Below the pieces are notes generated by a model, which did no database searches, had not been told where the DNA came from, and saw only the letters and a program-made list of their open reading frames with translations. A program made the translations under genes and the position numbers. This document shows, piece after piece, positions 1 through 13,575 of a stretch of DNA of 14,480 nucleotides (positions are counted from its first letter, which is position 1; the number at the start of each line of letters is the position of its first letter). Where the stretch lies: IMG/VR virus record IMGVR_UViG_2579778968_000005; one strand, written 5' to 3'. The DNA comes from a virus (taxonomy: Duplodnaviria > Heunggongvirae > Uroviricota > Caudoviricetes).

Positions 1-220
1 GCGTGATGATGTTGCCGCTGGTCGTCGTCGGTTGCACATCAAAGCAGTCTGTCAGTCAGTGCGTGAAGCCACCACCGCCTCCGGCGTGGATAATGCAGCC
101 TCCCCCCGACTGGCAGACACCGCTGAACGGGATTATTTCACCCTCCGGGAACGACTGGTAATGATGCAGGCCCAACTTGAAGGTGCTCAGCAATACATAA
201 CCGAGCAGTGTTTAAAGTAA
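1..220 (+). CDS. Rz: Rz-like i-spanin, C-terminal part (5' end lies upstream of the window)
   Basis: Reading frame is open from position 2 to the TAA at 218-220. The C-terminus (LADTAERDYFTLRERLVMMQAQLEGAQQYITEQCLK) closely resembles the lambda Rz C-terminus as I recall it, and a proline-rich Rz1-like ORF is nested in another frame. Confidence 0.8.
   Translation, partial: RDDVAAGRRRLHIKAVCQSVREATTASGVDNAASPRLADTAERDYFTLRERLVMMQAQLEGAQQYITEQCLK
6..161 (+). CDS. Rz1: Rz1-like o-spanin lipoprotein nested inside Rz (true start may lie upstream of the window)
   Basis: Frame 3 reads MMLPLVVVGCTSKQSVSQCVKPPPPPAWIMQPPPDWQTPLNGIISPSGNDW and ends at TAA 159-161. It has a lipobox-like VVGC and a proline-rich tail typical of Rz1, fully embedded in the Rz frame. 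Confidence 0.75.
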   Translation: MMLPLVVVGCTSKQSVSQCVKPPPPPAWIMQPPPDWQTPLNGIISPSGNDW

Positions 221-299
221 AATCTTAACTACAATATGATTCATTTTGATGATTGTTTCATAAGGAACAGTGAAGTAAGATCTAAGAGGAGTTAAATTT

Positions 300-357
300 T
301 ATACAGTATAATCATAATATTGCAGCAAGGTGGTTATAATTGAAAGAATATTTAGAT
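300..357 (+). promoter_or_regulatory. AT-rich putative promoter/leader region upstream of trkG
   Basis: Intergenic AT-rich stretch with TATAAT hexamers at 307-312 and 335-340. No convincing -35 at canonical spacing, so this is tentative. Confidence 0.2.
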
Positions 358-1815
358 ATGAATACATCTCATGTAAGAGTTGTTACTCATATGTGTGGGT
401 TCCTGGTTTGGCTCTATAGTCTTTCAATGTTGCCACCAATGGTTGTAGCATTGTTTTATAAAGAAAAAAGCCTGTTCGTTTTCTTTATAACTTTCGTTAT
501 ATTTTTTTGCATTGGTGGCGGAGCGTGGTATACAACTAAGAAATCTGGCATTCAATTACGTACCCGTGATGGGTTTATTATAATTGTAATGTTTTGGATT
601 TTGTTTTCTGTTATTAGTGCATTCCCTTTATGGATTGACTCAGAACTTAATTTAACGTTCATTGATGCTCTGTTTGAAGGGGTTTCTGGAATAACAACAA
701 CAGGAGCAACTGTAATTGATGATGTTAGTTCATTACCTCGGGCATATTTGTACTATCGGTCACAGTTAAATTTTATAGGTGGTTTAGGAGTTATTGTTCT
801 GGCGGTTGCTGTATTGCCATTATTGGGTATTGGTGGTGCAAAGCTTTATCAGTCAGAAATGCCGGGGCCATTTAAGGATGACAAACTCACTCCCCGCCTG
901 GCCGATACGTCACGGACACTGTGGATAACTTATTCTTTATTAGGTATTGCTTGTATTGTCTGTTATAGACTTGCAGGAATGCCTTTGTTTGATGCTATTT
1001 GTCACGGGATTTCCACAGTTTCGCTTGGTGGTTTCTCAACTCATAGCGAGAGTATCGGATATTTTAATAACTATTTGGTTGAGCTGGTGGCTGGTTCTTT
1101 TTCCCTGCTATCGGCTTTCAACTTCACTCTTTGGTATATTGTTATTAGCAGAAAAACGATAAAACCTTTAATCAGAGATATTGAACTTCGTTTCTTTCTG
1201 TTAATAGCCTTAGGGGTGATCATTGTTACCTCTTTCCAGGTCTGGCATATAGGTATGTATGACTTGCATGGAAGTTTTATTCATTCGTTTTTTCTTGCCA
1301 GCTCCATGCTCACTGATAATGGTTTAGCTACGCAGGATTATGCAAGTTGGCCCACGCACACGATAGTGTTTTTGCTGTTGTCAAGTTTCTTTGGGGGATG
1401 TATAGGTTCAACTTGTGGTGGAATTAAGTCACTTCGATTTCTTATACTTTTCAAACAAAGCAAACACGAGATAAATCAGCTTTCTCATCCCAGAGCGTTG
1501 TTGAGTGTAAATGTAGGAGGGAAGATAGTTACAGATCGTGTAATGAGGTCTGTATGGAGTTTCTTTTTTCTTTATACTCTCTTCACGGTGTTTTTTATAC
1601 TGGTGTTAAATGGTATGGGATATGATTTTCTTACATCATTTGCAACAGTGGCTGCATGTATTAATAATATGGGATTAGGTTTTGGGGCTACTGCATCGTC
1701 ATTCGGAGTGCTTAATGACATTGCAAAATGTTTAATGTGCATAGCTATGATTCTTGGTCGCCTTGAAATTTATCCTGTTATTATATTGTTTTCAGGTTTT
1801 TTTTGGCGCTCCTAA
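358..1815 (+). CDS. trkG: Trk-system potassium uptake membrane protein TrkG (TrkH/TrkG family)
   Basis: Polytopic membrane protein of about 485 aa from ATG 358 (the ORF track starts at TTG 340), ending at TAA 1813-1815. The translation matches my memory of E. coli TrkG (MNTSHVRVVTHMCGFLVWLYSL...), which sits right after rzpR/rzoR in the Rac prophage. The gene is strongly AT-rich compared with its neighbours. Confidence 0.9.
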   Translation: MNTSHVRVVTHMCGFLVWLYSLSMLPPMVVALFYKEKSLFVFFITFVIFFCIGGGAWYTTKKSGIQLRTRDGFIIIVMFWILFSVISAFPLWIDSELNLTFIDALFEGVSGITTTGATVIDDVSSLPRAYLYYRSQLNFIGGLGVIVLAVAVLPLLGIGGAKLYQSEMPGPFKDDKLTPRLADTSRTLWITYSLLGIACIVCYRLAGMPLFDAICHGISTVSLGGFSTHSESIGYFNNYLVELVAGSFSLLSAFNFTLWYIVISRKTIKPLIRDIELRFFLLIALGVIIVTSFQVWHIGMYDLHGSFIHSFFLASSMLTDNGLATQDYASWPTHTIVFLLLSSFFGGCIGSTCGGIKSLRFLILFKQSKHEINQLSHPRALLSVNVGGKIVTDRVMRSVWSFFFLYTLFTVFFILVLNGMGYDFLTSFATVAACINNMGLGFGATASSFGVLNDIAKCLMCIAMILGRLEIYPVIILFSGFFWRS

Positions 1816-1952
1816 TATATGGCTGATTTATAATTGTGAGTTTAATATTATGTTGACTCACTCATTGATCCAATACCTAACTTTACCAGCAACACCTCCG
1901 TCCCCAGTAGCACTGGCTGCTGGGGTGCGTTTTATTCATAAAGCAAGGCTGT

Positions 1953-2744
1953 ATGAGCGAGAAATTAAAGATAGTCTATCGCCCATTACAAGAATTGTCA
2001 CCGTATGCGCACAACGCCAGGACGCACAGTACTGAGCAGGTGGCACAACTGGTAGAAAGTATTAAGCAATTCGGCTGGACTAATCCGGTGCTGATTGACG
2101 AAAAGGGCGAAATTATTGCGGGTCACGGTCGTGTTATGGCGGCTGAAATGCTCAAAATGGATTCTGTTCCGGTCATTGTTCTGTCTGGCCTGACGGATGA
2201 GCAGAAAAAGGCGTACCGCCTGGCAGATAATCGCCTGCCGATGAATGCTGGCTGGGATGAAGATCTGTTGCGGATGGAGCTGTCGGACCTAATCAATGCT
2301 GATTTTGATGTCTCCCTGACAGGCTTCATCCCGACAGAAATTGATGAACTGTTGACGGATGTTTTGCCCGGTACAGGAAATGAGGAGGAGCCGTATACGA
2401 CGAAAATTGATACGCCTGTTTATGAGCCGTCGGGCGGTAAACCGGATATCAGTGAACTGTACGACGATACGAAAACTCAGGAGCTGATCAGCCGGATACG
2501 TTCGGCGTCCCTTGAGCCTGATATTGAGAAATTCCTCCTGTGTGCGGCAGAACGTCACACGGTGTTTAATTTCAGCAGAATTGCGGACTATTACGCTCAC
2601 GCCCCCGCTGAAATTCAGTGTTTTTTCGAGGAGTCGGCGCTGGTGATCATTGATTATCAGCAGGCTATTGAAAATGGATTTGTCCGGATGACGCAGCGCA
2701 TGGTGGAGATCATGCATGGTGGTGAGGAGGAGGAATATGCGTGA
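1953..2744 (+). CDS. ParB/Srx-like (ParB N-terminal nuclease-like domain) protein with an acidic C-terminal region of unknown function
   Basis: The N-terminal ~95 aa (KIVYRPLQELSPYAHNARTH...IIAGHGRVMAA...YRLADNRL) look like the ParB N-terminal/sulfiredoxin fold. Position matches ynaK of the Rac prophage. The stop TGA 2742-2744 overlaps the next start. Confidence 0.7.
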   Translation: MSEKLKIVYRPLQELSPYAHNARTHSTEQVAQLVESIKQFGWTNPVLIDEKGEIIAGHGRVMAAEMLKMDSVPVIVLSGLTDEQKKAYRLADNRLPMNAGWDEDLLRMELSDLINADFDVSLTGFIPTEIDELLTDVLPGTGNEEEPYTTKIDTPVYEPSGGKPDISELYDDTKTQELISRIRSASLEPDIEKFLLCAAERHTVFNFSRIADYYAHAPAEIQCFFEESALVIIDYQQAIENGFVRMTQRMVEIMHGGEEEEYA

Positions 2745-3669
2745 TGATTTTTGCGCCTTTATTCTGACTCACGGGCGACCGGACAAAGTTCTGACTTACC
2801 GGACGTTGCGTCGTGCTGGCTATACCGGGAAAATTTTTATCGTTGTTGATGATGAAGATAAGACACGGCATCAGTACATGGCTGAATTTGGTGAACAGGT
2901 GCTGGTGTTTTCCAAAGCCGATATCGCCAGTCGTTTTGACGAAGCCGATAATTTCTGTGACCGCCGCTCAATTTTTTACGCCCGTAATGCCTGTTTCGAC
3001 CAGGCAAAACTGGTCGGGTGTAAATACTTCATTCAGCTCGATGATGATTATCACGAGTTCCAGTTTCGGGTGGATCGCAACTATGACCAGGCCTATTTTC
3101 CGATAAGGAAACTGGATGCGATCCTTTCTGAAATGCTGGCGTACTACGAATCAATACCTGCTCTTTCCATCGCTATGTCGCAGGGCGGGGATTTTCTTGG
3201 TGACAATGGCGGCCATGCTTCGTGGGTGAAACGCAAGGCAATGAACAGCTTTATCTGTTCGGTTGATCGACCGTTCTCATTCATGGGGCGCATTAACGAG
3301 GATGTGAATACGTACACGAATCTCGGTCGCTGTGGTGAATTGTTTATGACGATCGGTGCTGTCCAGTTAGGGCAGAAACAGACGCAGAAAAACAGCGGCG
3401 GAATGACCGAGCTGTATCTGGATTCCGGAACCTACGTTAAAAGTTTTTACTCCGTCATGTATGCGCCGTCGTGCGTAAAAATCTCACTGATGGGTGCCAG
3501 CCATAAACGCATTCACCATCAGGTCACTTGGAACAACGCTGCAGTAAAAATCCTTCACGAAAAATACAGGAAGAAGACACCCTGCATATCAATGGGGGTG
3601 ACAAATGATTCCGTATTCGAAAGTCGAGTCTCTGGCAGCGTGCCGGATGACTGCACAACAAATCGCTGA
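2737..3669 (+). CDS. Hypothetical protein with GT-A-like (nucleotide-diphospho-sugar transferase-like) features, translationally coupled to the ParB-like gene
   Basis: ATG 2737 follows a GAGGAGGAGG Shine-Dalgarno run at 2724-2733 (the ORF track starts at ATG 2716, upstream of that run). The N-terminus (FILTHGRPDKVL...IFIVVDDED) and a later QLDDDYHEF resemble the GT-A beta-alpha-beta start and DxD motif. The 8-nt overlap ATGCGTGA with the upstream stop indicates coupling. Function is inferred from motifs only. Confidence 0.55.
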   Translation: MRDDFCAFILTHGRPDKVLTYRTLRRAGYTGKIFIVVDDEDKTRHQYMAEFGEQVLVFSKADIASRFDEADNFCDRRSIFYARNACFDQAKLVGCKYFIQLDDDYHEFQFRVDRNYDQAYFPIRKLDAILSEMLAYYESIPALSIAMSQGGDFLGDNGGHASWVKRKAMNSFICSVDRPFSFMGRINEDVNTYTNLGRCGELFMTIGAVQLGQKQTQKNSGGMTELYLDSGTYVKSFYSVMYAPSCVKISLMGASHKRIHHQVTWNNAAVKILHEKYRKKTPCISMGVTNDSVFESRVSGSVPDDCTTNR

Positions 3670-3856
3670 CGTTCTGGATGTTGATCTGAACCGACTGAAA
3701 GAAAATCGGGAAGCAATGACAGATTTTTATGCGGCCATCCGTAAGGGCAGAGCGAAAGGTGAAGCCGAGTTACGAGCGGCATTGTTTAAGCTTGCCAGAA
3801 AAGGGGATGCCTTTGCTCTGCGCGAACTACTCAGGGTGGATAAAAATCAGGACTAA
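3605..3856 (+). CDS. Small helix-turn-helix protein upstream of the small terminase (possible packaging or regulatory DNA-binding protein)
   Basis: 83-aa ORF with a GGGGG Shine-Dalgarno at 3594-3598. It carries an HTH-like segment (MTAQQIADVLDVDLNRL) and overlaps the 3' end of the upstream gene; an alternative start is ATG 3647. Confidence 0.5.
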   Translation: MIPYSKVESLAACRMTAQQIADVLDVDLNRLKENREAMTDFYAAIRKGRAKGEAELRAALFKLARKGDAFALRELLRVDKNQD

Positions 3857-3859
3857 CTG

Positions 3860-4954
3860 ATGAGCAGACCGGACTGGGGGGCGTTGCAGCAGGAGTATAT
3901 TGCTGAATACACCCGCTCCGGTATATCTCCGGTGGCATGGTGTGAAGCAAGGGGACTGAATTACGCAACAGCCCGTCGTTACATCAAAAAAACTCCGAAA
4001 AATGCGCAGACAGAAATGTGCAAAACTGCGCAAAAAAGTGCGCAGAAAAAATCTGCGCAGACTGCACAAAAGCGGAACGAAAAATCTCAGGAAAAAAAGC
4101 CAGTATTCGATGCGGGCCTGAATGAGGGCGACGCGGAGGAATTTTCGTTCTGTCCCGATGAATTCGGCATTTCTGACCAGCAGGCTAAGTTTGCGATGCT
4201 TGTTGCTCAGGGTAAAAAGCCGACAGAGGCGTACCGACTAGCCGGTTATGAGGGGCAAGGTGCGACAGCTAACAGCAACGCCAGTCGTATGCTTAGAAAT
4301 GCCAGGGTTTTTCGCGCTATCAGCTACTTCCGCAATCAGTACCAGAAACGCTATACCGCAGACCTGGATTTACTAGTGAGTCAGTTGATGGCTATTGTCC
4401 TGGCCGACCCCAATCAGCTTGCACAATTTCGCCGTGTTAACTGCCGTTATTGCTGGGGCGAGAATCATCTCTACCAGTGGCGCGATATAGCAGAATTCGA
4501 CAAGGCAGCGGCGCAGGCTTCCAGAGATGGCAAACCCGAACCGGAATATGGAGGCCTCGGCTTTGTTGATAACGCCATACCCAATCCGGACTGCCCGAAG
4601 TGCTGCGGTGAGGGAACGGGACAGCTTTATATGGCTGATACCACTCTGCTTGATGGGGATGCGCGGCAATTATATGCAGGGGCAAAATTCGGAAAATTCG
4701 GCGTTGAGATCCTGCTGGAGGATAAGGCTGCCGCCCGGCGTGAATTGTTGCGTTTGTTTTCTGCTGGCGGGGCTTTATGTGCAGATAAGCGGCTACAGGA
4801 ACTGGAAATTGAACGGCGCAGAATGGAAAACCAGAAGCTGCGCAAAGAGATCGAAACGGTGGAAGATAATGAACATCCCCAGCCTGTGGCGATCAATATT
4901 AATGTGGTTGATGCCAGAGTAAGGAGTGATGAAGATGATCTCTCCGACGCTTAA
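3860..4954 (+). CDS. Terminase small subunit (Terminase_2-like), unusually long, with a low-complexity insert and a Cys4 zinc-ribbon-like motif
   Basis: N-terminal HTH (ISPVAWCEARGLNYATARRYI) and the segment KFAMLVAQGKKPTEAYRLAGYEGQGATANSNASRMLRNARVFRAI look like the small-terminase signature. It sits directly upstream of the large terminase. Contains CRYCWGENH...CPKCCGEG. Confidence 0.7.
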   Translation: MSRPDWGALQQEYIAEYTRSGISPVAWCEARGLNYATARRYIKKTPKNAQTEMCKTAQKSAQKKSAQTAQKRNEKSQEKKPVFDAGLNEGDAEEFSFCPDEFGISDQQAKFAMLVAQGKKPTEAYRLAGYEGQGATANSNASRMLRNARVFRAISYFRNQYQKRYTADLDLLVSQLMAIVLADPNQLAQFRRVNCRYCWGENHLYQWRDIAEFDKAAAQASRDGKPEPEYGGLGFVDNAIPNPDCPKCCGEGTGQLYMADTTLLDGDARQLYAGAKFGKFGVEILLEDKAAARRELLRLFSAGGALCADKRLQELEIERRRMENQKLRKEIETVEDNEHPQPVAININVVDARVRSDEDDLSDA

Positions 4955-6236
4955 TGTGCCTCAGGCGCGATTTCTTTCAATGCCCCATAAATTTAAAGCC
5001 TATATTGCTGGTTTTGGCTCGGGCAAAACATGGGTTGGGTGTGGCGGCATATGCAAGGGGATTTGGGAGCATCCAGGTATAAATCAGGGATATTTTGCGC
5101 CAACGTATCCCCAAATTCGCGATATTTTTTACCCTACAGTGGAAGAAGTTGCTGCTGACTGGGGATTGAACGTAAAAATTAATGAGGGAAATAAAGAGGT
5201 TCACTTTTATTACGGACGCCAGTATCGGGGAACCACTATCTGCAGATCGATGGAGAAGCCACAAACGATCGTCGGTTTCAAAATTGGTAATGCGTTGGTG
5301 GATGAACTGGACATTTTGCCGAAGGAAAAAGCCAGAACGGCGTGGCGCAAGATAATTGCACGTATGCGTTATAAGATTGATGGACTTCGCAACGGTATTG
5401 ACGTTACAACCACGCCGGAAGGATTCAAATTTGTCTACGAGCAGTTTGTTAAAGCCGTGCGTGAAAAAACAGAGCTGGCCTCACTGTATGGTCTGGTGCA
5501 GGCATCTACTTTCGATAATGAAAAGAACCTGCCAGCAGATTACATTCCTTCGCTTCTTGAATCATACCCTCCAGAGCTGATTAAAGCCTATCTTCGAGGA
5601 CAGTTTACTAACCTGACAAGTGGTACTGTTTACCATCAGTTTGACCGGAAACTGAATAATTGCGAAGAAGTGGAGCAGCCAGGGGAGCCGATTTATATTG
5701 GGATGGATTTTAACGTTGGAAAGATGGCGGGAATCGTCCATGTGCTGCGTTTGGGGCTTCCATGTGCGGTAACTGAAATCATCAATGCCTACGATACGCC
5801 GGATATGATCCGCATCATTAAAGAACGCTTCTGGCTGTATGATGGGAATGATTACCGGAAAGTGAGGGAAATTTATATTTATCCAGATGCTTCCGGGGAT
5901 TCCAGAAAATCAAGTAACGCAAGTACGACGGATATAGCCCAGCTTAAGCAGGCTGGTTTTAACGTTGTGGTGAACAGCTCGAACCCGCCAGTAAAAGATC
6001 GCGTTAACTCAATGAATGCAATGTTCTGCAATGCCAATGGTGAGCGTCGCTATAAAGTTAATGTGAAGCGTTGCCCGTTATATGCCGAATCTCTGGAGCA
6101 ACAGGTCTGGGATGAGAAGGGGGAGCCTGATAAAAAATCTGGCAATGATCACCCGAATGATGCCGGAGGTTATTTCATCGTTAAGCAATTCCCTATTGTC
6201 AAACCGACCGGAAGAGTCACATCACTTCGGATTTAA
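4935..6236 (+). CDS. Terminase large subunit
   Basis: Walker A-like AGFGSGKTWVG near the N-terminus, with size and position (after the small terminase, before the portal) as expected. AAGGAG at 4921-4926 sits 8 nt before ATG 4935; alternative starts are GTG 4926 and ATG 4929. Stop is TAA 6234-6236. Confidence 0.8.
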   Translation: MISPTLNVPQARFLSMPHKFKAYIAGFGSGKTWVGCGGICKGIWEHPGINQGYFAPTYPQIRDIFYPTVEEVAADWGLNVKINEGNKEVHFYYGRQYRGTTICRSMEKPQTIVGFKIGNALVDELDILPKEKARTAWRKIIARMRYKIDGLRNGIDVTTTPEGFKFVYEQFVKAVREKTELASLYGLVQASTFDNEKNLPADYIPSLLESYPPELIKAYLRGQFTNLTSGTVYHQFDRKLNNCEEVEQPGEPIYIGMDFNVGKMAGIVHVLRLGLPCAVTEIINAYDTPDMIRIIKERFWLYDGNDYRKVREIYIYPDASGDSRKSSNASTTDIAQLKQAGFNVVVNSSNPPVKDRVNSMNAMFCNANGERRYKVNVKRCPLYAESLEQQVWDEKGEPDKKSGNDHPNDAGGYFIVKQFPIVKPTGRVTSLRI

Positions 6237-6238
6237 TT

Positions 6239-7645
6239 ATGGCTGATATATCAACACCCAACCTCGACTATAACGATATGCTGGAGGCGTGGGATATTAA
6301 CGACGCACTGATGGGCGGTACGCTTGAAATGCGCAGGCAGGGGGAAAATTATCTCCCAAAATGGCCTAACGAAGATGAAGACGCTTATAAAAAACGCCTG
6401 TCTGTGGCTACGCTACTTCCTGTGTATGAAGAAAGCATCAAGCAAAATATTGGGCGCATATTTGCAGAGCCGACAGTATTGAGTGAGGAAACGCCGGCAA
6501 AAATCAGGGAATATGCAGAAAATATCGACATGGAGGGGAGCCGACTGGATGTGTGGGCGCAGCAATTTTTCAGCCTCGCATTTCAGTATGGTGTGGCACA
6601 TGCGCTGGTGGACTATCCACGAACGGATATGAAAGAGATTCGGACAAAAGCCGATGAAAACGCGACCGGTGGTCGTCCGTACGTTACGATGCTGAATCCA
6701 CGCCAGGTTATTGGATGGAAATCGAAAGTTGAAAAAGGGAAAGTTGTTCTCACTGATTTGCGTATAAAAGAGGTCATCATTATTGATGGTGATGATTTCG
6801 GGCAGAAGAAGGTGGAGCAGATCCGCCATATTATGCCCCGTCGAGTTGAAATTTATCGACGTAGCGAAGGCACTAATGGCGAATCTGTCTGGACGCTTCA
6901 TGAGTCATGGAATACCAGCCGTGATGATATTCCTCTGGTAACACTGTACACGAAGAAAACAGGATTTATGCGTGGTACACCGCCATTGCTTAATCTTGGC
7001 TTGCTGAATATCAAGCACTGGCAAAGCCAGAGCGAGCAGGACAATATTCTTCATGTTGCCCGCGTTCCATTGCTGGTGGCCTACGGGCTGGACAGGAATG
7101 AAGAACTGACGGTTGGTGCATCCACCGCTACGATTTTTGAGGACAGAACAAAAAATGGCCTCGAATATGTTGAACATAGTGGCGCAGCGATAGAATCTGG
7201 CGAAACATCACTTGAGAAGCTGGAAAATCAGATGCGTCATGCCGGCGCTAAACTTCTGCGTGCTGAAAATACATCCACCAAATCTGTTGATCAGACTAAT
7301 GAAGAGCGAATGCAGGAAAACTCGCCGCTTTATACAATGGCGAACTCCCTCGAAGATGCCCTCGATAATATTCTCCAGATAATGGCGGAATGGATCGGAG
7401 AGAGTTGCGGTGGCAATGTGGATGTGCGCACTGAACTGGATGTATCTGCCCAGGTGTTTGACTCATCCTCCGCGCTGGCTGTTCAGTCATTGCGTCAGGG
7501 CGGTGATATACGTCAGATTGATGCGGTTCGGGTGTTGCAGGCGTTGAAATTTATCGATCAGGATTCCCGTCCAGAGGAAGTGATCGATGAATTAAAAAAT
7601 CAGAGTGTAATGCTGATGGAAATCAATGATGCAAACCGTGAATGA
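6239..7645 (+). CDS. Portal protein (putative)
   Basis: 468-aa ORF starting 2 nt after the terminase stop and followed by a Mu F-like gene, the canonical order in SPP1-like head modules. Assignment rests on synteny and size. Confidence 0.6.
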   Translation: MADISTPNLDYNDMLEAWDINDALMGGTLEMRRQGENYLPKWPNEDEDAYKKRLSVATLLPVYEESIKQNIGRIFAEPTVLSEETPAKIREYAENIDMEGSRLDVWAQQFFSLAFQYGVAHALVDYPRTDMKEIRTKADENATGGRPYVTMLNPRQVIGWKSKVEKGKVVLTDLRIKEVIIIDGDDFGQKKVEQIRHIMPRRVEIYRRSEGTNGESVWTLHESWNTSRDDIPLVTLYTKKTGFMRGTPPLLNLGLLNIKHWQSQSEQDNILHVARVPLLVAYGLDRNEELTVGASTATIFEDRTKNGLEYVEHSGAAIESGETSLEKLENQMRHAGAKLLRAENTSTKSVDQTNEERMQENSPLYTMANSLEDALDNILQIMAEWIGESCGGNVDVRTELDVSAQVFDSSSALAVQSLRQGGDIRQIDAVRVLQALKFIDQDSRPEEVIDELKNQSVMLMEINDANRE

Positions 7646-8741
7646 ACGGCTGCGTGATGAATCAATTGCTCATGCAGTCTGGATATCCCGCTATAGCACT
7701 GGCGTGGCTGCCAGAATGGTGAAAATACTGAATGACAGCGATGCGGAACTTACTGCTCGCCTGCTGATAGCACTGGACAGCCTCGATCCAGGTAGTTTTA
7801 CCGTTAAGCGCCTGGAGTCACTTCTGGCGAGCGTCAGAGAGGTTAACCGCACTGCTATTAACAGCATGTTTACCAGTCTCTCCGGAGAGCTGAACGAGCT
7901 GGCAATTTATGAGGCTGGTTATCAGTTAAGTCTGTTTGATTCTATGCTACCTGATTTTGTTGCTGATGTTCACCCTCTGGTTGGTATCTCTCCTGATGCA
8001 CTTTATGCCGCTGCAATGGCGCGACCATTCCAGGGACGACTGCTCAGTGAGTGGGCCTCAGATCTTGAGGCGGATCGGCTCAGACGCATAACAAATACAG
8101 TGCGTCAGGGTTTTTTGCTGGGGGATACCAATGAGCAGATCGCAAGAAAAATTCGGGGACATGTCAGTAAGGGATTTCAGGATGGTGCATTGCAGATGAG
8201 CCGGGCTAATGCGGCCAGCATTGCAAAAACAGCGGTTGGACATCTTGCTGCTACTGCCCGTGAGAGTTTTGCCAGCGCGAATAATGATTTGATTAAGGGT
8301 AAGCAATGGTTATCAACGCTTGATAATCGTACTACGCCACAATGTCGAATCAGGGATCGCCTCAAATATACGCTGAATAATAAACCTGTAGGTCACAGCG
8401 TGCCTTATTTGCAGGGGCCGGGAAAAATTCATTTCTGCTGCCGCTCAACGGAAACGTTCATTCTGAAATCAGCGAAGGAACTGGGTATTGATGTTCGCGA
8501 TATTTCCCCGGCTGAGCGGGCCAGCATGGATGGCGTGGTGGCCGGAGATACAACCTACAGGGAATGGTTTTTGCGTCAGCCTTACACCAGACAAAAACAG
8601 ATTGTGGGGGAAAGCCGAGCAAAGCTGATTCGGGATGGTGGTATGTCGCCAGATGAATTTTACACCGATAAAGGCGAATGGCTGACGCTGAAGCAGCTCC
8701 GTGAGCGTGATGCACAGGTATTCAGAAAAGCAGGGATTTAA
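7626..8741 (+). CDS. Phage Mu F-like / SPP1 gp7-like minor head (head morphogenesis) protein
   Basis: C-terminal signature WLSTLDNRTTPQCRIRDRL...GHSVPYLQGPGKIHFCCRST is typical of the Mu F family. It overlaps the portal 3' end by 20 nt, consistent with coupling. Confidence 0.85.
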   Translation: MMQTVNERLRDESIAHAVWISRYSTGVAARMVKILNDSDAELTARLLIALDSLDPGSFTVKRLESLLASVREVNRTAINSMFTSLSGELNELAIYEAGYQLSLFDSMLPDFVADVHPLVGISPDALYAAAMARPFQGRLLSEWASDLEADRLRRITNTVRQGFLLGDTNEQIARKIRGHVSKGFQDGALQMSRANAASIAKTAVGHLAATARESFASANNDLIKGKQWLSTLDNRTTPQCRIRDRLKYTLNNKPVGHSVPYLQGPGKIHFCCRSTETFILKSAKELGIDVRDISPAERASMDGVVAGDTTYREWFLRQPYTRQKQIVGESRAKLIRDGGMSPDEFYTDKGEWLTLKQLRERDAQVFRKAGI

Positions 8742-8760
8742 ATAAATCATTTATTACAAC

Positions 8761-8788
8761 AGGCTACCTTCGGGTGGCCTTTTTTATT
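8761..8788 (+). terminator. Rho-independent terminator-like hairpin (8-bp stem, UUCG tetraloop, T-run)
   Basis: AGGCTACC-TTCG-GGTGGCCT, with one G-U pair in the stem, followed by TTTTTTATT. It lies just downstream of the Mu F-like stop. Confidence 0.6.
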
Positions 8789-8845
8789 GCTGCGATCCGG
8801 ATGGTGAGCAGCGTAACTGTCGGAAGACTTAAACCAGGTACTAAT

Positions 8846-9610
8846 ATGAAACTGAAAACGGTCGAGATTAACGGAAAACAATACGCAGAAATTGATACTG
8901 CTGGCCTGCCAGTTTATGTGCACGACGATGGTAAAGAAATTGGCTTCGATGCACCGCTGGCGACAAAAAAAATTACAGAGCTTAATGGCGAGGCAAAAAA
9001 TCATCGCCTGGCTAAAGAAGCTGCAGAGGAAAAACTGGCTAAGTTTGCCGCTATCGAAGACCCGAAGAAGGCGATCGAGGCACTGGAAATGCTGTCAAAA
9101 ATCGACCAGAAAAAGCTGCTCGATGCGGGACAGGTTGACCAGGTTAAGGCAGAAATTACGAAAAATTTTCAGCAGCAATTAGATGAAGAAAAGCAACGCT
9201 CTCAGATGCTGGAGAAGCAGCTTTACGATTCTATGATTGGCGGTAGTTTTGCGGGTTCAAAATATATTGCCGATAAAATTGCGATCCCGGCAGATTTATT
9301 ACAAGCCCGCTTCGGGCAGGCATTCAAAGTGGAAGAAGGGAGGATCGTTGCTTATGACGCTTCCGGCAACAAAATTTATTCCCGCGCGAAGCCTGGCGAA
9401 CTGGCGCAGTTTGATGAGGCGCTGGAGTTCCTTGTCGAAAATTACCCTCAGAAAGACTACATCCTGAAAGCCAGTGGCAACAATGGCGGCGGCTCCCGTC
9501 CGACACAGCATGATATTGGTCAGAAAACGATGAAACGCTCTGCTTTTGATGCACTGGATGTTGCAGGTAAGCAAAACGCATTGAAAGACGGTATCACAAT
9601 CGTTGATTAA
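8846..9610 (+). CDS. Scaffolding-like head protein (putative)
   Basis: K/E/A-rich, apparently coiled-coil protein placed between the Mu F-like gene and the capsid gene. ATG 8846 is preferred because the longer ORF starts (8774, 8801) overlap or abut the terminator hairpin; the Shine-Dalgarno is weak. Confidence 0.5.
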   Translation: MKLKTVEINGKQYAEIDTAGLPVYVHDDGKEIGFDAPLATKKITELNGEAKNHRLAKEAAEEKLAKFAAIEDPKKAIEALEMLSKIDQKKLLDAGQVDQVKAEITKNFQQQLDEEKQRSQMLEKQLYDSMIGGSFAGSKYIADKIAIPADLLQARFGQAFKVEEGRIVAYDASGNKIYSRAKPGELAQFDEALEFLVENYPQKDYILKASGNNGGGSRPTQHDIGQKTMKRSAFDALDVAGKQNALKDGITIVD

Positions 9611-9708
9611 CACATTTGTCAGCTTCCGGATGGGAGCTGGTGTCAGGGCTGGATAGCTCATTACTCCATCTATTCACAATTACGCAAATTTTTAAGGAAT
9701 ATTTAATT

Positions 9709-10848
9709 ATGGCTGGAAATACCCTGACCGGGTTGATCCCGACTATTTATACCGCCCTGGATGTTGTATCCCGTGAGCAGGTAGGTTTTATCCCTGCGGT
9801 AGCAAAAAACGCAAAAGCTGACGCCGCAGCAAAAGATCAGACGGTAACCGCGCCAGTTGCGCCTGAGGCGAAAACCGAAGATATCGTACCGGGGCCGTCA
9901 GCTCCGAATACCGGTGATCAAAATATTGGCACTGTTGATGTAAAAATTACTAAATCCAAAATGGCACCGGTTAAATGGAATGGTGAAGAACAACTGGCTC
10001 TTGGCCCTTCAGGGACTTACAACACCATTCTGGCTGATCAGTTCAAGCAGGCTTTTCGCGCCCTTGCAAACGAGGTTGAGGCTGATCTTGGTGCGTTGTA
10101 TTTCGGTGCTTCCCGCGCCGTGGGAACCGCAGGGACAACGCCGTTTGGTGTTAAAGATGATCTTTCTGATGCTGCTCTGGCTCGTCAGGTTCTGGAGGAT
10201 AACGGCGCACCGACAACCGATCTGCAGATGGTGCTTGGCTCCACTGCCATTGCTAATTTGCGCGGAAAACAGTCTGTATTGTTTAAAGTGAATGAATCCG
10301 GCACTGAACAGCTACTGCGTGAGGGCGTGTTGGGGCGTCTGGAGGGATTCAATATTCACAGTTCGGCAGGTGTGAAACGAGCGCCAAAGGTTGCTGCAAC
10401 TGGTTATCTCGTGAATGGAGAGAAAAAAGAAGGCGATGTTCTTATTTCCATTGATACTGGTTCGGGGAGTATTTCTGCAGGTCAGATTGTTACGTTCGCT
10501 GGTGATCCGAATCAGTATGTTGTGGCAGCAGCGACCAGCAATCTGATTACTCTTGCAGCGCCCGGACTGCGTCAGGATCTGGCCGATGATACTGCCATCA
10601 CAGTTGTTGGGGCCTTTACTGCAAATATGGCGTTTGATCGCAACGCGTTTCTGCTGGCATCCCGTACTCCGGCAATGCCGGAAGGTGGCGATAATGCTGA
10701 TGATGTAATGAATGTTACGGACCCGATTTCAGGGATTACGTTCCAGATTGCACTGTATCGTCAGTATCGCCAGGTGCGCTATGAAGTTGGACTGGCATGG
10801 GGTGTTTCATCAGTGAAGCCGGCACATGGTTGTCTGATTCTTGGTTAA
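9709..10848 (+). CDS. Major capsid (coat) protein (putative)
   Basis: 379-aa ORF with AAGGA at 9694-9698 about 10 nt before ATG 9709. It follows the scaffold-like gene and is followed by a terminator-like hairpin, as expected for a highly expressed coat gene. Assignment is by synteny and size. Confidence 0.6.
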   Translation: MAGNTLTGLIPTIYTALDVVSREQVGFIPAVAKNAKADAAAKDQTVTAPVAPEAKTEDIVPGPSAPNTGDQNIGTVDVKITKSKMAPVKWNGEEQLALGPSGTYNTILADQFKQAFRALANEVEADLGALYFGASRAVGTAGTTPFGVKDDLSDAALARQVLEDNGAPTTDLQMVLGSTAIANLRGKQSVLFKVNESGTEQLLREGVLGRLEGFNIHSSAGVKRAPKVAATGYLVNGEKKEGDVLISIDTGSGSISAGQIVTFAGDPNQYVVAAATSNLITLAAPGLRQDLADDTAITVVGAFTANMAFDRNAFLLASRTPAMPEGGDNADDVMNVTDPISGITFQIALYRQYRQVRYEVGLAWGVSSVKPAHGCLILG

Positions 10849-10858
10849 ACATTCAAAC

Positions 10859-10879
10859 GGGGCTTCGGCCCCATTTTTA
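10859..10879 (+). terminator. Terminator-like GC hairpin with UUCG loop and T-run downstream of the capsid gene
   Basis: GGGGC-TTCG-GCCCC followed by ATTTTTA. The stem is only 5 bp, so it may act as a partial terminator or a transcript-stabilising hairpin. Confidence 0.4.
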
Positions 10880-10890
10880 ATGGGGGGCAT

Positions 10891-11067
10891 ATGGCCGGAT
10901 TAACTAAAGAGCAAAGAGCACAGCGTGAAGCCGCACAAAAAACGCAAATTGAGTTAGTGGTTATGGTGACCGATTATCAGATGTTTCCCGGCGCACCAAC
11001 TATCGCTAATGTTCATCCTGATGAAGTTGACAACTGGAAGGCTATGGGCTGGAAAACTCAGGAGTAA
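10891..11067 (+). CDS. Small hypothetical protein (58 aa), absent from the ORF track (58 aa, under the apparent length cutoff)
   Basis: Hand translation gives MAGLTKEQRAQREAAQKTQIELVVMVTDYQMFPGAPTIANVHPDEVDNWKAMGWKTQE, ending at TAA 11065-11067. A G-run at 10882-10887 precedes the ATG, and the ORF exactly fills the gap between the capsid terminator and the next gene. Confidence 0.35.
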   Translation: MAGLTKEQRAQREAAQKTQIELVVMVTDYQMFPGAPTIANVHPDEVDNWKAMGWKTQE

Positions 11068-11070
11068 CAC

Positions 11071-11466
11071 ATGATCACTTACGTGACCTGTGATGACGTT
11101 GATAATGCGTTTGGGAACGCCTGGACGAGTGAGAACGCTAAAAATAAAGCTGTTTTAATGGCTAATGCCTGGCTTAATGGCTTCAACCTGAAAATTAACC
11201 CATCCCGTATTCCGGAAGAGGTAAAACTTGCGGGAGCATATGCAGCCAGAATTGCCTCATTCGGTAAGTTGTTTCAGCAGAAAAATGATTCTGGCGTTGT
11301 TATCAGTAAAGCCGTGTCGGCTGACGGGGTCAGTGTATCGAAATCATTTTCTGAGTTGCCAGCAAACAGCACTGCATTGCTTGAACCCGATTTACAGCTT
11401 GCGATAGCACTGCTGAAACCGTACGGACTTAGTCGCTCACAAGTCAGGGTTGTGAGGGGGGGATAA
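11071..11466 (+). CDS. Head-tail connector / head completion protein (putative)
   Basis: 131-aa ORF with GGAG 6 nt upstream of ATG 11071. It is the first of four tightly packed small genes between capsid and major tail. Function is from synteny only. Confidence 0.45.
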   Translation: MITYVTCDDVDNAFGNAWTSENAKNKAVLMANAWLNGFNLKINPSRIPEEVKLAGAYAARIASFGKLFQQKNDSGVVISKAVSADGVSVSKSFSELPANSTALLEPDLQLAIALLKPYGLSRSQVRVVRGG

Positions 11467-11849
11467 TGGGGCTTCGTGAAGAGATTCAGTCAGAGGTTGC
11501 CGCTGCTTTTGATGAGGATTTAGCGGACGCCGTGAGTGATTTTTCTGGTTCTTACGTTACGCACCGGCACTGGGATCCTGTGACGGAAACTGGCGGCGAA
11601 TCCACCGCAATCTATACCGGGCGAGGCGTGTTGACACGTTATAAGCTGGGCAGAATTGATGGGATTAATATTTTGCATGGTGACCTTAAATTAACCGCTC
11701 TGGTATGCGAGGTTACGGATAAACCAGCTGTCGACCATATTATTGAGATTTATGATCCTGTATCAAGGCAGTTACAACGATACGAGGTAATTACAGCAAG
11801 TGTAGATCCTTCCGCATCAGTTTACTCTATCCAGTTAAGGAGAGCGTAA
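11466..11849 (+). CDS. Head closure / head-tail joining protein (putative)
   Basis: 127-aa ORF whose ATG overlaps the upstream stop (TAATG) and follows a G-rich Shine-Dalgarno. Function is from synteny only. Confidence 0.4.
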   Translation: MGLREEIQSEVAAAFDEDLADAVSDFSGSYVTHRHWDPVTETGGESTAIYTGRGVLTRYKLGRIDGINILHGDLKLTALVCEVTDKPAVDHIIEIYDPVSRQLQRYEVITASVDPSASVYSIQLRRA

Positions 11850-12230
11850 ATGGCAAAGGCATGGGATATAGAACCGTCAATATTTGCCGGGATGATTGAG
11901 GAAGATGTAGGACTGAAGATTCGCTACATCGCTATTCAGATTCTTACTGCTATTGATATTGCTGCTCCGGTTGATACCGGACGTTTCAGAAATAACAACC
12001 TGGTGTCGTTACAGCATCCCGATTTTGGTATATCTGATAACGTGGATCCGAACGGTACGATTGCTGTTCAGCGTGGGATCGGGGTTATTTCGAAAGCTGC
12101 AAATTACGGAGTTATTTATATCCAGAATAACCTTCCTTATGCAGAGGCTCTTGAAAACGGTCATTCACAACAAGCGCCAACTGGCGTGTATGCCAACGCT
12201 TTTCATGGTGTTTTACAGGTTTACAAATGA
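11850..12230 (+). CDS. HK97 gp10-like neck / tail-component protein (putative)
   Basis: 126-aa ORF with AAGGAG just upstream and a start abutting the previous stop. The segment PVDTGRFRNN is reminiscent of the HK97 gp10 family. Assignment is tentative. Confidence 0.45.
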   Translation: MAKAWDIEPSIFAGMIEEDVGLKIRYIAIQILTAIDIAAPVDTGRFRNNNLVSLQHPDFGISDNVDPNGTIAVQRGIGVISKAANYGVIYIQNNLPYAEALENGHSQQAPTGVYANAFHGVLQVYK

Positions 12231-12619
12231 CGTTTACTGAAATCAGAAATACGGTTATTTCCAGAATGACGGCACAGACGATTATTGATGGAAAAGACGT
12301 ATTGTATCCGAACGCGCCAACGTTCGATCCTTCCGGTAAGTTAATCTGGGCGCGGTTAAGTAATATTCCCGGGCAGGCTGGAGTTAATGAAATTGGCGCG
12401 GGGCCGATTGTTTATCGCACGGGGATAATCATTATTCAGTTATTTGTCCCCGCAGGTTCTGGTTCAAAACTCATTACTGAGACAGCCGATAAATTGCGGG
12501 AACTGTTTGAGTTTCAGGATGACGATTGTCTCAGTTACCAGGCTGTTTCCTCAATAGCCGTTGGCGAAAAGAATGGCTGGTTCCAGCTTAATCTTCAAAT
12601 TCCATATCGCGCGCTCTAG
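12227..12619 (+). CDS. Tail completion / tail terminator protein (putative)
   Basis: 130-aa ORF overlapping the upstream gene by ATGA and sitting immediately before the major tail gene. Function is from synteny only. Confidence 0.4.
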   Translation: MTFTEIRNTVISRMTAQTIIDGKDVLYPNAPTFDPSGKLIWARLSNIPGQAGVNEIGAGPIVYRTGIIIIQLFVPAGSGSKLITETADKLRELFEFQDDDCLSYQAVSSIAVGEKNGWFQLNLQIPYRAL

Positions 12620-12645
12620 CGCAATTAATGACATAGGAGGCTCCT

Positions 12646-13575
12646 GTGAGTTCAGGTGCAAAGGTTATCTCGGCATTTATCCGGGAGACGGTTGCAGGCA
12701 CTACGCCAGCAAGTGGTGACTGGAGTTTATTAAAACGCACAAGCTGGGGAGTAAAACCCACCCAGAATAAAGGCGAAAATAATGAGATTGGTGGCTCCCG
12801 GATGGCTCAGGGGGCGACGCCTGGCACTGTGGATGTCGGCGGTGATGTTGGTACCAAATTTCGCTGGGGTCAACATGATGATTTTCTTGCATCCTGTTTC
12901 GGCGCGGAATGGTCAGGCGATTCTCTGACAATGGGGAATGAGCGAATAACATTTTCTCTGGCGACCTATGCGTCCGATGTCGGAATTGCCTCTGTCGTCA
13001 GAGGAGCGCAGGTTGGCTCATGGAAAATGCAGATCCCTAACGACGGCGATATTACAGCGACCGTAACCTTTGCCGGACTGGACTGGGAATCAAAGGCCGA
13101 TGATACGAATTTTATCAAAGGCGAACCTGTGGATAGTGCAGGAAAGCTACGTTATTCGTTTAAGGAGGTTTCTGCAGTAAGCCTGAATGGTGTTGCCGGA
13201 GGTAACGGTTTTTGTATCGACAGTTTTGATATTCAGTTCGATAACAAACTCCAGACACAGCGTTGTATCGGGACTGGCTCGCCTTATGCAGGAGCAAATA
13301 TTCCGACTACTTTTACACCGTCCGGTACGGTGACGCTTTCATGGTCTAAAGCCGCGTGGGAAATCTGGAGTAAAACACTGACTGGAGAAACAGTTCCGTT
13401 CAGCTTCACGCTTTCGAATGGAGAGGGGGCATACACTTTCAGTTTCCCGAAGGTTCAGGTGTCAGGTGAATGGCCTGATGGGGGTAATAGCGACATTATC
13501 CAGGTTCAATTGAGCATTACCGCAGCAGATGAAGCACCTACGATAACCAGAAAAAAAATTCCCCGGCTGCCGTGA
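12646..13575 (+). CDS. Major tail (tail tube) protein (putative)
   Basis: 309-aa ORF from GTG 12646 with AGGAGG at 12635-12640. It lies directly upstream of the G/GT chaperone pair. Stop is TGA 13573-13575. Confidence 0.6.
   Translation: MSSGAKVISAFIRETVAGTTPASGDWSLLKRTSWGVKPTQNKGENNEIGGSRMAQGATPGTVDVGGDVGTKFRWGQHDDFLASCFGAEWSGDSLTMGNERITFSLATYASDVGIASVVRGAQVGSWKMQIPNDGDITATVTFAGLDWESKADDTNFIKGEPVDSAGKLRYSFKEVSAVSLNGVAGGNGFCIDSFDIQFDNKLQTQRCIGTGSPYAGANIPTTFTPSGTVTLSWSKAAWEIWSKTLTGETVPFSFTLSNGEGAYTFSFPKVQVSGEWPDGGNSDIIQVQLSITAADEAPTITRKKIPRLP

Follow-up and report, generated by a model that had tools for sequence, protein, structure and literature searches.

Introduction

What do two overlapping genes do that lie just upstream of the DNA-packaging genes of an intact Rac-type E. 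coli prophage? The pair was noticed in a 14,480-nucleotide stretch of DNA (the window; IMG/VR record IMGVR_UViG_2579778968_000005, Caudoviricetes). A preliminary description made from the sequence alone read the first gene as a ParB N-terminal/sulfiredoxin-like domain with an uncharacterised acidic C-terminal half and the second as a GT-A-like glycosyltransferase. It placed the pair where lambdoid phages usually carry accessory cargo, and offered DNA or protein glycosylation, anti-restriction, superinfection exclusion or a packaging accessory as plausible roles. Here, we asked whether the observation holds, what the proteins are, how widely the pair is distributed, and what the complex, if there is one, may act on.

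Results

The observation was confirmed. The features of the locus, all on the plus strand, are as follows.

1902..1925 (+), terminator-like hairpin (10-bp stem, T-rich tail) ending the low-G+C trkG moron and marking the upstream boundary of the module
1953..2744 (+), partner gene (gene 1, 263 aa), with TGA stop at 2742-2744
1953..2357 (+), ParB/Srx-fold N-domain of the partner (aa 1-135)
2394..2432 (+), invariant linear motif Y148-T-x-K-I-x-x-P155-x-Y157-x-P-S inside the predicted disordered acidic linker (aa 136-165)
2448..2741 (+), helical C-terminal domain (CTD; aa 166-263)
2724..2733 (+), Shine-Dalgarno sequence GAGGAGGAGG for the glycosyltransferase (GT) gene, inside the end of the partner gene
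2737..2744 (+), 8-nt overlap ATGCGTGA of GT start and partner stop
2737..3669 (+), GT gene (gene 2, 310 aa), predicted GT-A fold, Pfam TAGT; named 'GREB1-related protein' in RefSeq
2776..2778 (+), codon of R14, the invariant Arg of the R...DDD...ED motif set of JGT-like phage GT-A enzymes (motif definition from Pyle et al.)
3040..3048 (+), codons of D102-D103-D104, the DxD-type metal/nucleotide-sugar motif at the end of strand E97-102
3295..3303 (+), codons of N187-E188-D189, the invariant 'ED' motif
3605..3856 (+), small ORF (83 aa from 3605; 69 aa from 3647 in RefSeq) resembling part of a small terminase (phrog_309) and overlapping the GT 3' end; context, not shown to belong to the module
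3860..6236 (+), terS (3860-4954, Terminase_2) and terL (4926-6236, Terminase_6N/6C), the packaging genes that the pair precedes; context only

A longer open reading frame for gene 2 begins at ATG 2716. The start at ATG 2737 is supported because all 24 homologues aligned begin within a few residues of the MRDDF position and RefSeq annotates the same start.

The pair lies between trkG and the lysis genes on one side and terS/terL on the other. Its G+C content (47-51%) matches the late genes, while that of trkG is 32-41%. The true moron is trkG, and the pair is not random cargo dropped into a moron slot. The preliminary description also took K-12 ynaK and ydaY as the surviving fragments of this locus. 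We found that ynaK is the first 254 nt of gene 1, but that ydaY is not a GT fragment: it corresponds to the ORF at window 13656-14117, and K-12 simply lacks window 2207-13765, a deletion of 11.6 kb.

Gene 2 belongs to a named family that the preliminary description did not identify, TAGT (PF20691), the JGT/GREB1 family. The match scores 120.4 bits against a cut-off of 27.5 (E=1.2e-34) and covers residues 8-222 and profile positions 4-205 of 205; phrog_842 is hit at 5.6e-104. All homologues carry PF20691. The AF2 model has pLDDT above 90 for residues 1-150, and Foldseek searches of it returned GT-A enzymes in the PDB (SunS, ThuS, SpsA, ColGalT1 and glycogenin), although these are generic GT-A matches (TM 0.3-0.4); the top structural matches among viral proteins (BFVD) are all TAGT proteins. 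In an alignment of 25 sequences, R14 (in THGRPD), D38/D41 (in IVVDDED), D102-D103-D104-Y105 (in LDDDY) and N187-E188-D189 are invariant, so that the motifs singled out in the preliminary description are real. The third active-site motif reads EDV rather than EDY/F. A highly conserved C-terminal extension (aa 223-290) lies outside the Pfam model. Identity is 42-69% across phyla, with about 75 invariant columns.

Gene 1 hits Pfam ParB_N (PF02195) at residues 23-90 (29.3 bits, cut-off 26.3) and phrog_620 over its full length (1.3e-90). Foldseek searches with the N-domain gave ParB-CDP (6sdk), Noc (7nfu), PadC (6ryk), MxParB-CTPγS (7bnr) and KorB (8qa9) with probability 1.00. In 100 diverse homologues, N21 is conserved at 100%, and the NTP-binding motif positions (Box I, the GxxR P-motif of Box II and the Asn of Box III) are conserved at S36 (91%), G57 (99%), R60 (92%) and N93 (99%), with Box II reading GHGR (in AGHGR) rather than GERR; NTP binding itself is inferred. 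The same type of N-domain is otherwise mostly fused to phage DNA methyltransferases (phrog_498, 8.9e-51; PADLOC MTase_II PDLC03229, 1.7e-38; tblastn hits annotated as methylases), as the preliminary description had suggested.

The protein does not qualify as a canonical partition ParB. TIGR00180 scores 38 bits against a cut-off of 58.45, no HTH or ParB C-domain is hit in Pfam, no parA was found in the prophage or in the neighbourhoods examined, and the N-terminus lacks an LG(R/K)GL motif.

The C-terminal half of the partner is acidic (linker pI 4.1, CTD pI 4.5), and pI is 4.1-5.2 in 99 homologues. The linker motif is predicted to be disordered (pLDDT 31-36), yet Y148, P155 and Y157 are 100% conserved in the 100 diverse partners. 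In the CTD, R201, Y214, E226 and D234 are 100% conserved, H202 95% and G242 99%; the family has 1,188 representatives of 50%-identity clusters. The CTD gave no significant Pfam match. The only recurrent hit is a weak one to PF23887, 'L5 gene 47-like', in 7 of 28 members (best E=0.025). A profile search of the PDB gave only weak, unconvincing hits to unrelated repeat, starch-binding and adhesin proteins (best E 0.004-0.007), and PADLOC gave none. The AF2 model of the CTD has low confidence.

To see whether the two genes co-occur, we first scanned viral contigs with the window GT as first sequence, which returned only near-identical E. coli prophages; a distant-first alignment searched against species-level genomes was used instead. 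Of 80 species-level loci found through the GT, in more than ten phyla, 79 have the partner directly upstream, and the exception is cut by a contig end. Of 80 viral loci found through the CTD, all 80 carry the GT. All nine Pfam-annotated neighbourhoods show the pair, and neighbour clustering found no third conserved gene. Stop and start overlap in 112 of 123 loci (11 nt in 57, 8 nt in 34, 4 nt in 9 and 14 nt in 8), indicating translational coupling. Tandem GT paralogues are common, and one partner can serve two or three of them. Hosts range from E. coli to Haloarcula and include Proteobacteria, Bacteroidota, Firmicutes, Actinobacteria and candidate phyla; the pair occurs in lytic phages, in Gram-positive hosts and in a haloarchaeal virus. 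It is intact in 889 of 5,426 complete E. coli genomes.

Roughly 17-20% of the partners lack the ParB domain, so the invariant core is linker motif, CTD and GT, and the half called uncharacterised in the preliminary description is the part obligately linked to the GT. The linker motif is also present in the CTD-only partners. Their N-termini (for example MKQINLFG) look like a beta-clamp-binding motif, but we did not accept this reading, since the segment aligns with the conserved L(T/F)GF element that precedes the linker in full-length partners, including that of E. coli (SLTGF), and is more likely a shared interface element.

The pair almost always precedes terS/terL, and in most loci sits immediately upstream of them, across phyla and at least four unrelated terL families. 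In the complete 31.8-kb phage c5 it lies 90 nt from the cos site. In 191-kb Vibrio phages, however, it sits between exonuclease/primase and helicase genes, and a related E. coli phage with an 86%-identical terS lacks it. We looked in related E. coli phages for an exchange of the pair with a ParB-methyltransferase at this slot, but the one terS relative without the pair has unrelated small ORFs there. In one locus a UDP-galactopyranose mutase lies just downstream.

We then looked for a source of the hydroxymethylated base that the TAGT family is known to use. No Tet_JBP or thymidylate-synthase family was found in the whole Rac-like prophage, in phage c5, in the nine Pfam-annotated neighbourhoods, or among recurrent neighbour clusters of the 80 loci. 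Since detection outside the prophage and c5 relied on annotation and clustering, a very divergent enzyme cannot be fully excluded.

Literature searches for a characterised ParB and TAGT pair, for ynaK, for 'GREB1-related' and for PF20691 gave only related systems and no experimental characterisation of the pair, although the paper that defined TAGT (Iyer et al. 2013, NAR 41:7635), which reportedly discusses ParB in DNA-modification operons and is cited for that idea by O'Toole et al., may already have drawn ParB-TAGT neighbourhoods.

Discussion

Our results partly support the interpretation in the preliminary description. The domain assignments, the DxD-type motif, the translational coupling and the lack of a characterised function held, while the cargo-slot reading and the origin of ydaY did not. 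None of the conditions set beforehand that we could examine refuted it: gene 2 is a GT, the pair is not a characterised module, and co-occurrence is near-absolute.

We argue that the two genes encode a two-subunit, late-expressed phage glycosyltransferase system that most likely acts on DNA, with a probability of about 0.45. What the analysis establishes is that gene 2 is a GT-A enzyme of the TAGT family with its nucleotide-sugar and metal motifs intact; that gene 1 carries a ParB-type NTP-binding fold with conserved P-motif residues, a predicted disordered acidic linker with an invariant Y-x6-P-x-Y motif, and a new helical CTD; that the CTD-bearing protein and this GT subfamily are inseparable, with overlapping genes in almost all phages examined; and that the pair heads the packaging operon here and in most loci. 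The rest is inferred from sequence and by analogy, including sugar transfer to DNA itself. In this view, the linker motifs and CTD would bind the GT in a stoichiometric complex and be needed for its activity, and the GT would take a UDP-sugar through the DDD motif. The ParB N-domain would tether or switch the complex on double-stranded DNA, as the ParB-like activator does for phage thymine dioxygenase 5mYOX176. Replicated phage DNA would be glycosylated just before or during packaging, which would protect it from restriction-type defences in the next host, and tandem GT copies in some phages would extend the sugar.

Several lines of evidence favour DNA as the target. Characterised TAGT members act on DNA bases, namely JGT, the phage 5hmC GT-As and the T2/T6 beta-glucosyl-HMC-alpha-GT. 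The N-domain equals the N-terminus of phage DNA methyltransferases, ParB-like proteins with an NBD and CTD but no DNA-binding domain are proven activators of a DNA-modifying enzyme on dsDNA (PMC13229309), and 5mYOX clusters also co-occur with GTs, ParBs and terminases. The position among replication genes in the Vibrio phages is in line with a link to DNA, and the host range calls for a universal acceptor. The mutase gene and the tandem GTs point to sugar use, and late expression is suggested by G+C content and by the shared strand and contiguity with lysis and terminase genes.

On the other hand, no hydroxymethyl-pyrimidine source was found, so the acceptor would not be the one known for this enzyme family, and direct glycosylation of a canonical DNA base is not known to have a precedent. 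The partner is strongly acidic and has no recognisable DNA-binding domain, which is odd for a DNA-targeting subunit, and its ParB domain, absent from about one fifth of partners, cannot be essential to the chemistry. Moreover, one TAGT-domain protein, GREB1, is reported to glycosylate a protein (PMC7968844). It is conceivable, though on present evidence unlikely, that the complex glycosylates a canonical, non-hydroxymethylated position in DNA (a base or a DNA end) without any precursor pathway. That would be a previously unknown kind of DNA modification, carried by about a thousand 50%-identity lineages of phages and by prophages in roughly one in six complete E. coli genomes.

The main rival, which we consider unlikely, is that the partner is itself the acceptor. 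The GT, and tandem copies where present, would glycosylate the invariant Tyr or Thr residues of the linker motif to give a phage glycoprotein, for example an acidic decoy or DNA mimic, or a primer as in glycogenin. The partner is the only protein that always accompanies the GT, as expected for a dedicated substrate, and invariant residues in a predicted disordered segment are typical of a modification site. Its acidity without a DNA-binding domain, its serving several tandem GTs, the peptide and protein glycosyltransferases among the remote structural neighbours (SunS, ThuS, ColGalT1, glycogenin) and the report on GREB1 also agree with this reading. However, the fold hits are generic, and invariant residues in a disordered linker fit a binding peptide equally well. 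This reading explains neither why the partner usually carries the module that phages otherwise fuse to DNA methyltransferases nor the placement beside packaging or replication genes, and most characterised family members act on DNA.

Somewhat less likely still, the complex could glycosylate another universal cellular molecule (a conserved host protein, an RNA, or a nucleotide or signalling molecule) to take over the host or block a defence, with the ParB-fold domain as an NTP-binding regulator rather than a DNA clamp. The conservation from Enterobacteria to haloarchaeal viruses requires a universal target, ParB-fold proteins bind varied NTPs and have many non-segregation roles (PMC12704722), and the absence of the pair from the phage with the 86%-identical terS shows that it is accessory, like many counter-defence genes. 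Against this, there are no PADLOC hits apart from the methyltransferase-type N-domain, no candidate target emerges from the gene neighbourhoods, a gene in the late operon next to the terminase is poorly timed for host take-over, and the family precedent points to DNA.

That the pair is a packaging accessory, with the ParB-like protein as a nuclease or cos/pac-binding factor for the terminase and the GT incidental, is very unlikely. The position upstream of terS/terL and near cos in c5 would fit, and ParB-fold proteins of this type are often annotated 'ParB-like nuclease' at phage genome ends. But conservation across at least four unrelated terL families argues against a specific terminase partner, a phage with a close terS homologue lacks the pair, CTD-only partners have no ParB domain, the Vibrio phages carry the pair among replication genes, and the strict GT linkage is left unexplained. 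Seroconversion or cell-surface glycan modification, or decaying non-functional cargo, is the least likely: although prophage glycosyltransferases often modify O-antigen and Rac is decaying in K-12, the GT family is soluble and DNA-associated, no Gtr-type membrane partners are present, and the pair is very strongly conserved, intact in many E. coli genomes, and found in lytic phages, Gram-positive hosts and an archaeal virus.

Phage DNA glycosylation is understood only where a hydroxymethyl-pyrimidine is made first, and published surveys found that about 65% of the phage GT-containing (GT-A or GT-B) contigs retrieved have no such partner pathway, and set them aside. We show that a large, very conserved branch of those 'orphans' is not orphan at all, but is locked to a previously undescribed domain, usually carried on a ParB-fold protein, and sits at the head of the packaging operon in phages of bacteria and archaea. 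If the target is DNA, this is a new and simple route to DNA hypermodification that would bear on restriction and CRISPR evasion, on sequencing artefacts and on enzyme tools, and would be a second example of ParB-fold proteins controlling DNA-modifying enzymes. If the target is the partner, it is a new phage glycoprotein system. Either way it can be tested directly in E. coli, and the deletion in K-12 probably explains why the pair was never studied.

How does the pair compare with known systems? With the TAGT enzymes (trypanosome base-J glucosyltransferase JGT, the phage GT-A 5hmC glycosyltransferases of Pyle et al. 2024, T2/T6 beta-glucosyl-HMC-alpha-glucosyltransferase and the GREB1 GT domain), gene 2 shares the significant Pfam match, the predicted GT-A fold, the invariant R...DDD...ED motifs and, as a phage gene, tandem copies in some phages. 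It differs in that no TET/JBP (5mYOX) or dNMP hydroxymethylase was found to supply the known acceptors (5hmU, 5hmC, glucosyl-5hmC), in its conserved C-terminal extension, and in always coming with the CTD-bearing partner. The T2/T6 enzymes were not recovered at E<=1e-10, so this is a distinct branch.

The ParB176/5mYOX176 activator-enzyme pair (O'Toole et al., PNAS 2026, PMC13229309) has a phage ParB-like protein with an NTP-binding N-domain, conserved NTP-motif residues and a C-terminal domain but no DNA-binding domain, encoded next to a post-replicative DNA-modifying enzyme that needs it on dsDNA, in clusters often near terminases and GTs. Our partner has this architecture and strict adjacency, while the need of its enzyme for it on dsDNA is inferred by analogy; its enzyme is a glycosyltransferase rather than a dioxygenase, its CTD matched no Pfam ParB domain, and its ParB domain is dispensable in about one fifth of the loci.

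The phage ParB-DNA methyltransferase fusions (phrog_498; PADLOC MTase_II PDLC03229) have the same type of N-domain, with 30-55% identity to many phage methylase N-termini, and are phage or prophage genes often near the genome end or packaging genes. There the ParB domain is fused directly to the enzyme, whereas here it is fused to an adaptor-like CTD and the enzyme is a separate, translationally coupled GT. Finally, the canonical ParB/Noc/KorB CTP-gated DNA clamps share the N-domain fold and the Box I, GxxR and N93 motif positions, while the partner described here is acidic, has a different C-terminal domain, and lacks an HTH DNA-binding domain, a ParA-binding motif and a parA neighbour.

Organization of the locus

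The window is the late region of an intact Rac-type prophage, and the whole prophage is annotated in E. coli strain 5283. It holds the end of the lysis genes, followed by:

340-1815, trkG, a low-G+C (32-41%) insert
1902-1925, a strong terminator-like hairpin with a 10-bp stem, in which the trkG segment (340-1925) ends
1953-2744, gene 1, encoding protein 1 (263 aa), the ParB-like partner
2724-2733, GAGGAGGAGG, the Shine-Dalgarno sequence of gene 2
2737-2744, the 8-nt overlap ATGCGTGA
2737-3669, gene 2, encoding protein 2 (310 aa), the predicted glycosyltransferase (GT)
3605-3856, a small ORF (83 aa, or 69 aa from 3647 in RefSeq)
3860-4954, terS
4926-6236, terL, followed by portal, head and tail genes

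The observation of two overlapping genes made in the preliminary description held, with the overlap and the Shine-Dalgarno sequence as described. The start of gene 2 at 2737 is supported over the upstream ATG at 2716 by the alignment of homologues and by RefSeq. The pair has 47-51% G+C, like the structural genes, and so belongs compositionally to the late operon, while trkG looks like the real moron between the lysis genes and this operon. Late transcription would have to read through the hairpin to reach the pair and the terminase genes. The small ORF between the GT and terS overlaps the 3' end of the GT and matches the middle of a small-terminase PHROG (phrog_309, 8.3e-23). The E. coli GT has a C-terminal tail of 20-25 aa that covers this overlap and is absent from the closest homologues, although a few distant ones have tails of their own.

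The preliminary description also took K-12 ynaK and ydaY as the remaining fragments of this locus, which is correct only for ynaK. K-12 Rac matches window 1-2206 and then 13766-14420, and an 11,559-bp deletion (2207-13765) removed codon 86 onward of the partner gene, the GT gene, and the genes for terminase, portal, head and most tail proteins. The junction (2206/13766, or 2753-2754 in L251, the K-12 locus) joins codon 85 of the ParB-like gene to the ydaY-family ORF. ynaK is therefore the 5' stump of gene 1, whereas ydaY is the 3' part of the ORF at 13656-14117 and not a GT fragment. Other E. coli genomes keep only the first 231, 349, 412-438 or 529 nt of the gene, joined to different sequences (Lom, tail fibre, P22-type capsid, sitA), and hybrid proteins of this kind appear in the homologue lists. 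The 5' part of this gene seems to be a recurrent deletion or recombination endpoint. Full-length copies of the pair occur in 889 of 5,426 complete E. coli genomes. In a related E. coli prophage (L249, 7469-8905), RefSeq names the gene in the portal position after terL 'anti-CBASS protein Acb1 family protein', which looks like a naming oddity.

Identity of the two proteins

Protein 1 matches Pfam ParB_N just above threshold and phrog_620 over its full length. Its N-terminal 140 residues match the N-terminus of phage DNA methyltransferases very well (phrog_498 at 8.9e-51 and PADLOC MTase_II at 1.7e-38). A tblastn search finds 495 phage records at E<=1e-8, and among the sampled hits, which are 30-61% identical apart from the near-identical E. 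coli phages, many are annotated as methylases or as 'ParB-like nuclease' genes at genome ends. The AF2 model gives a reasonably confident N-domain, a disordered stretch at residues 136-163, and a helical C-terminal domain (CTD) of low confidence. Structural comparison by Foldseek places the predicted N-domain with ParB-CDP, Noc, PadC, MxParB-CTPgS, KorB and sulfiredoxin.

Protein 2 matches Pfam TAGT (PF20691) at 1.2e-34 and phrog_842 at 5.6e-104. The core of its AF2 model is confident and has a GT-A fold, and its closest viral structural matches are all TAGT proteins. The R...DDD...ED motif set that Pyle et al. describe for JGT-like phage GT-A enzymes is invariant here as R14, D102-104 and E188-D189. 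TAGT also includes the T2/T6 beta-glucosyl-HMC-alpha-glucosyltransferase.

The pair is an obligate module

The main new result of this study is that the two genes form an obligate module. Both proteins have thousands of database relatives. A scan of one genome per species with a distant-first GT alignment returned 80 loci, from Proteobacteria, Bacteroidota, Clostridia, Negativicutes, Bacilli, Actinobacteria, Acidobacteriota, Planctomycetota, Verrucomicrobiota/Kiritimatiellae, Saccharibacteria, Pelagibacterales-like genomes and others, in which GT identity is still 42-69%. In 79 of the 80, a homologue of protein 1 lies directly upstream on the same strand, and in the one exception the GT is cut by the contig end. 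To test the reverse association, we used an alignment of only the last 125 residues of protein 1, which returned 80 viral contigs. All 80 carry the GT: 75 directly downstream, 4 directly upstream and 1 about 560 nt away. All nine places with precomputed Pfam annotation show the same pair. The stop of the partner gene overlaps the GT start in 112 of 123 loci, mostly by 11 or 8 nt, and clustering of all neighbouring ORFs found no third gene shared by more than 16 of the 80 loci.

In some loci (L105, L133, L149, L152, L156, L173, L176, L186, L189, L199, L203, L211, L214, L222, L228 and L256), two or three tandem paralogues of the GT occur next to a single partner gene, and L156 has the order CTD-GT-CTD-GT. 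This suggests stepwise building of a di- or trisaccharide. In five loci, of which those named here (L148, L152, L155 and L158, for example L155 10866-11825) are all Clostridia-type, a radical-SAM gene (PF04055) directly follows the GT, in another locus the first large downstream ORF is a UDP-galactopyranose mutase (PF03275), and in three others it is a DNA polymerase III beta clamp gene. A metagenomic phage carrying the pair (L004 17837-20316 and L005 8659-11138) also has four consecutive GT2-family glycosyltransferase genes right after its major capsid gene, which is reminiscent of virion-glycosylation cassettes.

Anatomy of the partner

About 22-25 of 128 partners are only 130-150 aa long and lack the ParB domain, among them the 139-aa ORF before the GT in Vibrio phage pv27. 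All partners keep three elements, namely a short hydrophobic L(T/F)GF or LFG element, an acidic linker, and the motif Y-T-x-K-I-x-x-P-x-Y-x-P followed by the CTD. The N-termini of CTD-only partners, such as those at L230 1082-1474, L233 92-490 and L242 3580-3978, read MKQINLFG, MKQINMFS or QANMFG, which resembles the bacterial beta-clamp-binding motif QL[SD]LF. However, the segment aligns with the L(T/F)GF element of full-length partners, so the resemblance may be coincidental.

In 100 diverse full-length partners the CTD is more conserved than the ParB domain (mean 0.62 versus 0.51), and Y148, P155, Y157, R201, Y214, E226 and D234 are 100% conserved. The ParB NTP-motif positions are also highly conserved (N21 100%, G57 99%, R60 92%, N93 99%). 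All partners are acidic (pI 4.1-5.2), whereas the GT has a pI of 8.0. The CTD has no significant Pfam or PADLOC match, and its PDB sequence hits are weak and unconvincing. Seven of 28 CTD sequences (an alignment of CTDs from L086-L163) give a weak Pfam hit to PF23887, 'Phage L5 gene 47-like protein' (best E=0.025), which may be a distant relative of the CTD in mycobacteriophages. The CTD defines a family of 1,188 representatives of 50%-identity clusters, nearly always at the C-terminus of proteins of 130-310 aa.

Genomic position and the missing precursor pathway

In 63 loci with enough downstream sequence, the usual order is GT, a small terS-like ORF, a 400-600-aa ORF, then portal. Of 56 first large downstream ORFs, 21 match Terminase_6N, 15 Terminase_3, 3-4 GpA and 2 TerL_ATPase, and others match only terminase nuclease domains, Terminase_2 or portal families. 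The pair therefore heads the packaging module of at least four terminase families. In phage c5 the two genes are ORF1 and ORF2, starting 90 nt from the cos end, in phi jlb1 they precede terS, and in HHTV-2 they lie 3 kb before terL. A related E. coli phage with an 86%-identical terS lacks the pair, so it is accessory.

Characterised TAGT enzymes need 5hmU, 5hmC or glucosyl-5hmC. No TET/JBP or thymidylate-synthase-type gene was found in the complete Rac-like prophage, in the complete 31.8-kb genome of c5, where no unassigned ORF exceeds about 210 aa, in the nine Pfam-annotated neighbourhoods, or among the recurrent neighbour clusters, which turned out to be C5 and N6/N4 methylases, SSB, VRR-NUC, PcfJ/K, DnaC-like, radical SAM and DUF5131 proteins. 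Hosts range from E. coli to Haloarcula, and the only protein that always travels with the GT is its partner. The acceptor must therefore be a universal molecule, or the partner itself.

Discussion

The pairing of the two genes, their position, and the family membership of the two proteins are shown by the analysis, whereas the enzymatic activity, its acceptor and any activating role of the partner are inferred. We favour, tentatively (probability about 0.45), a two-subunit DNA glycosyltransferase. The family precedent is DNA, and the ParB module is the one that phages attach to DNA methyltransferases. Moreover, a ParB-like protein with an NBD and CTD but no DNA-binding domain has just been shown to be an obligatory activator of a phage DNA dioxygenase on dsDNA, in clusters that also co-occur with GTs and terminases (PMC13229309). 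The pair also sits by packaging or replication genes. Against this reading stand the unknown acceptor chemistry, the acidity of the partner and the dispensability of the ParB domain. That the pair represents a new DNA modification chemistry is possible, though less likely than not.

The strongest rival, which we consider less likely, is that the invariant Tyr/Thr motif of the partner is the acceptor. Other universal targets are somewhat less likely still. A packaging accessory role is improbable, and surface glycan modification or decay even more so. The interpretation in the preliminary description was partly supported, in that the ParB-like and GT-A assignments and the coupling of the genes held, but the assignment of ydaY did not.

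Pyle et al. noted that about 65% of the phage GT contigs they retrieved lack 5mYOX/ThyS neighbours, and left them aside. Kaljevic et al. surveyed ParB fusions using Pfam domains, which would not register this unannotated CTD. In the literature examined, which did not include the 2013 paper that defined TAGT, we found no description of the CTD or of its strict coupling to a TAGT branch. The GT is a member of TAGT by sequence, fold and motifs, but it fails the contextual hallmark of the family, association with TET/JBP. Similarly, the partner is a member of the ParB-fold superfamily but not of partition ParBs.
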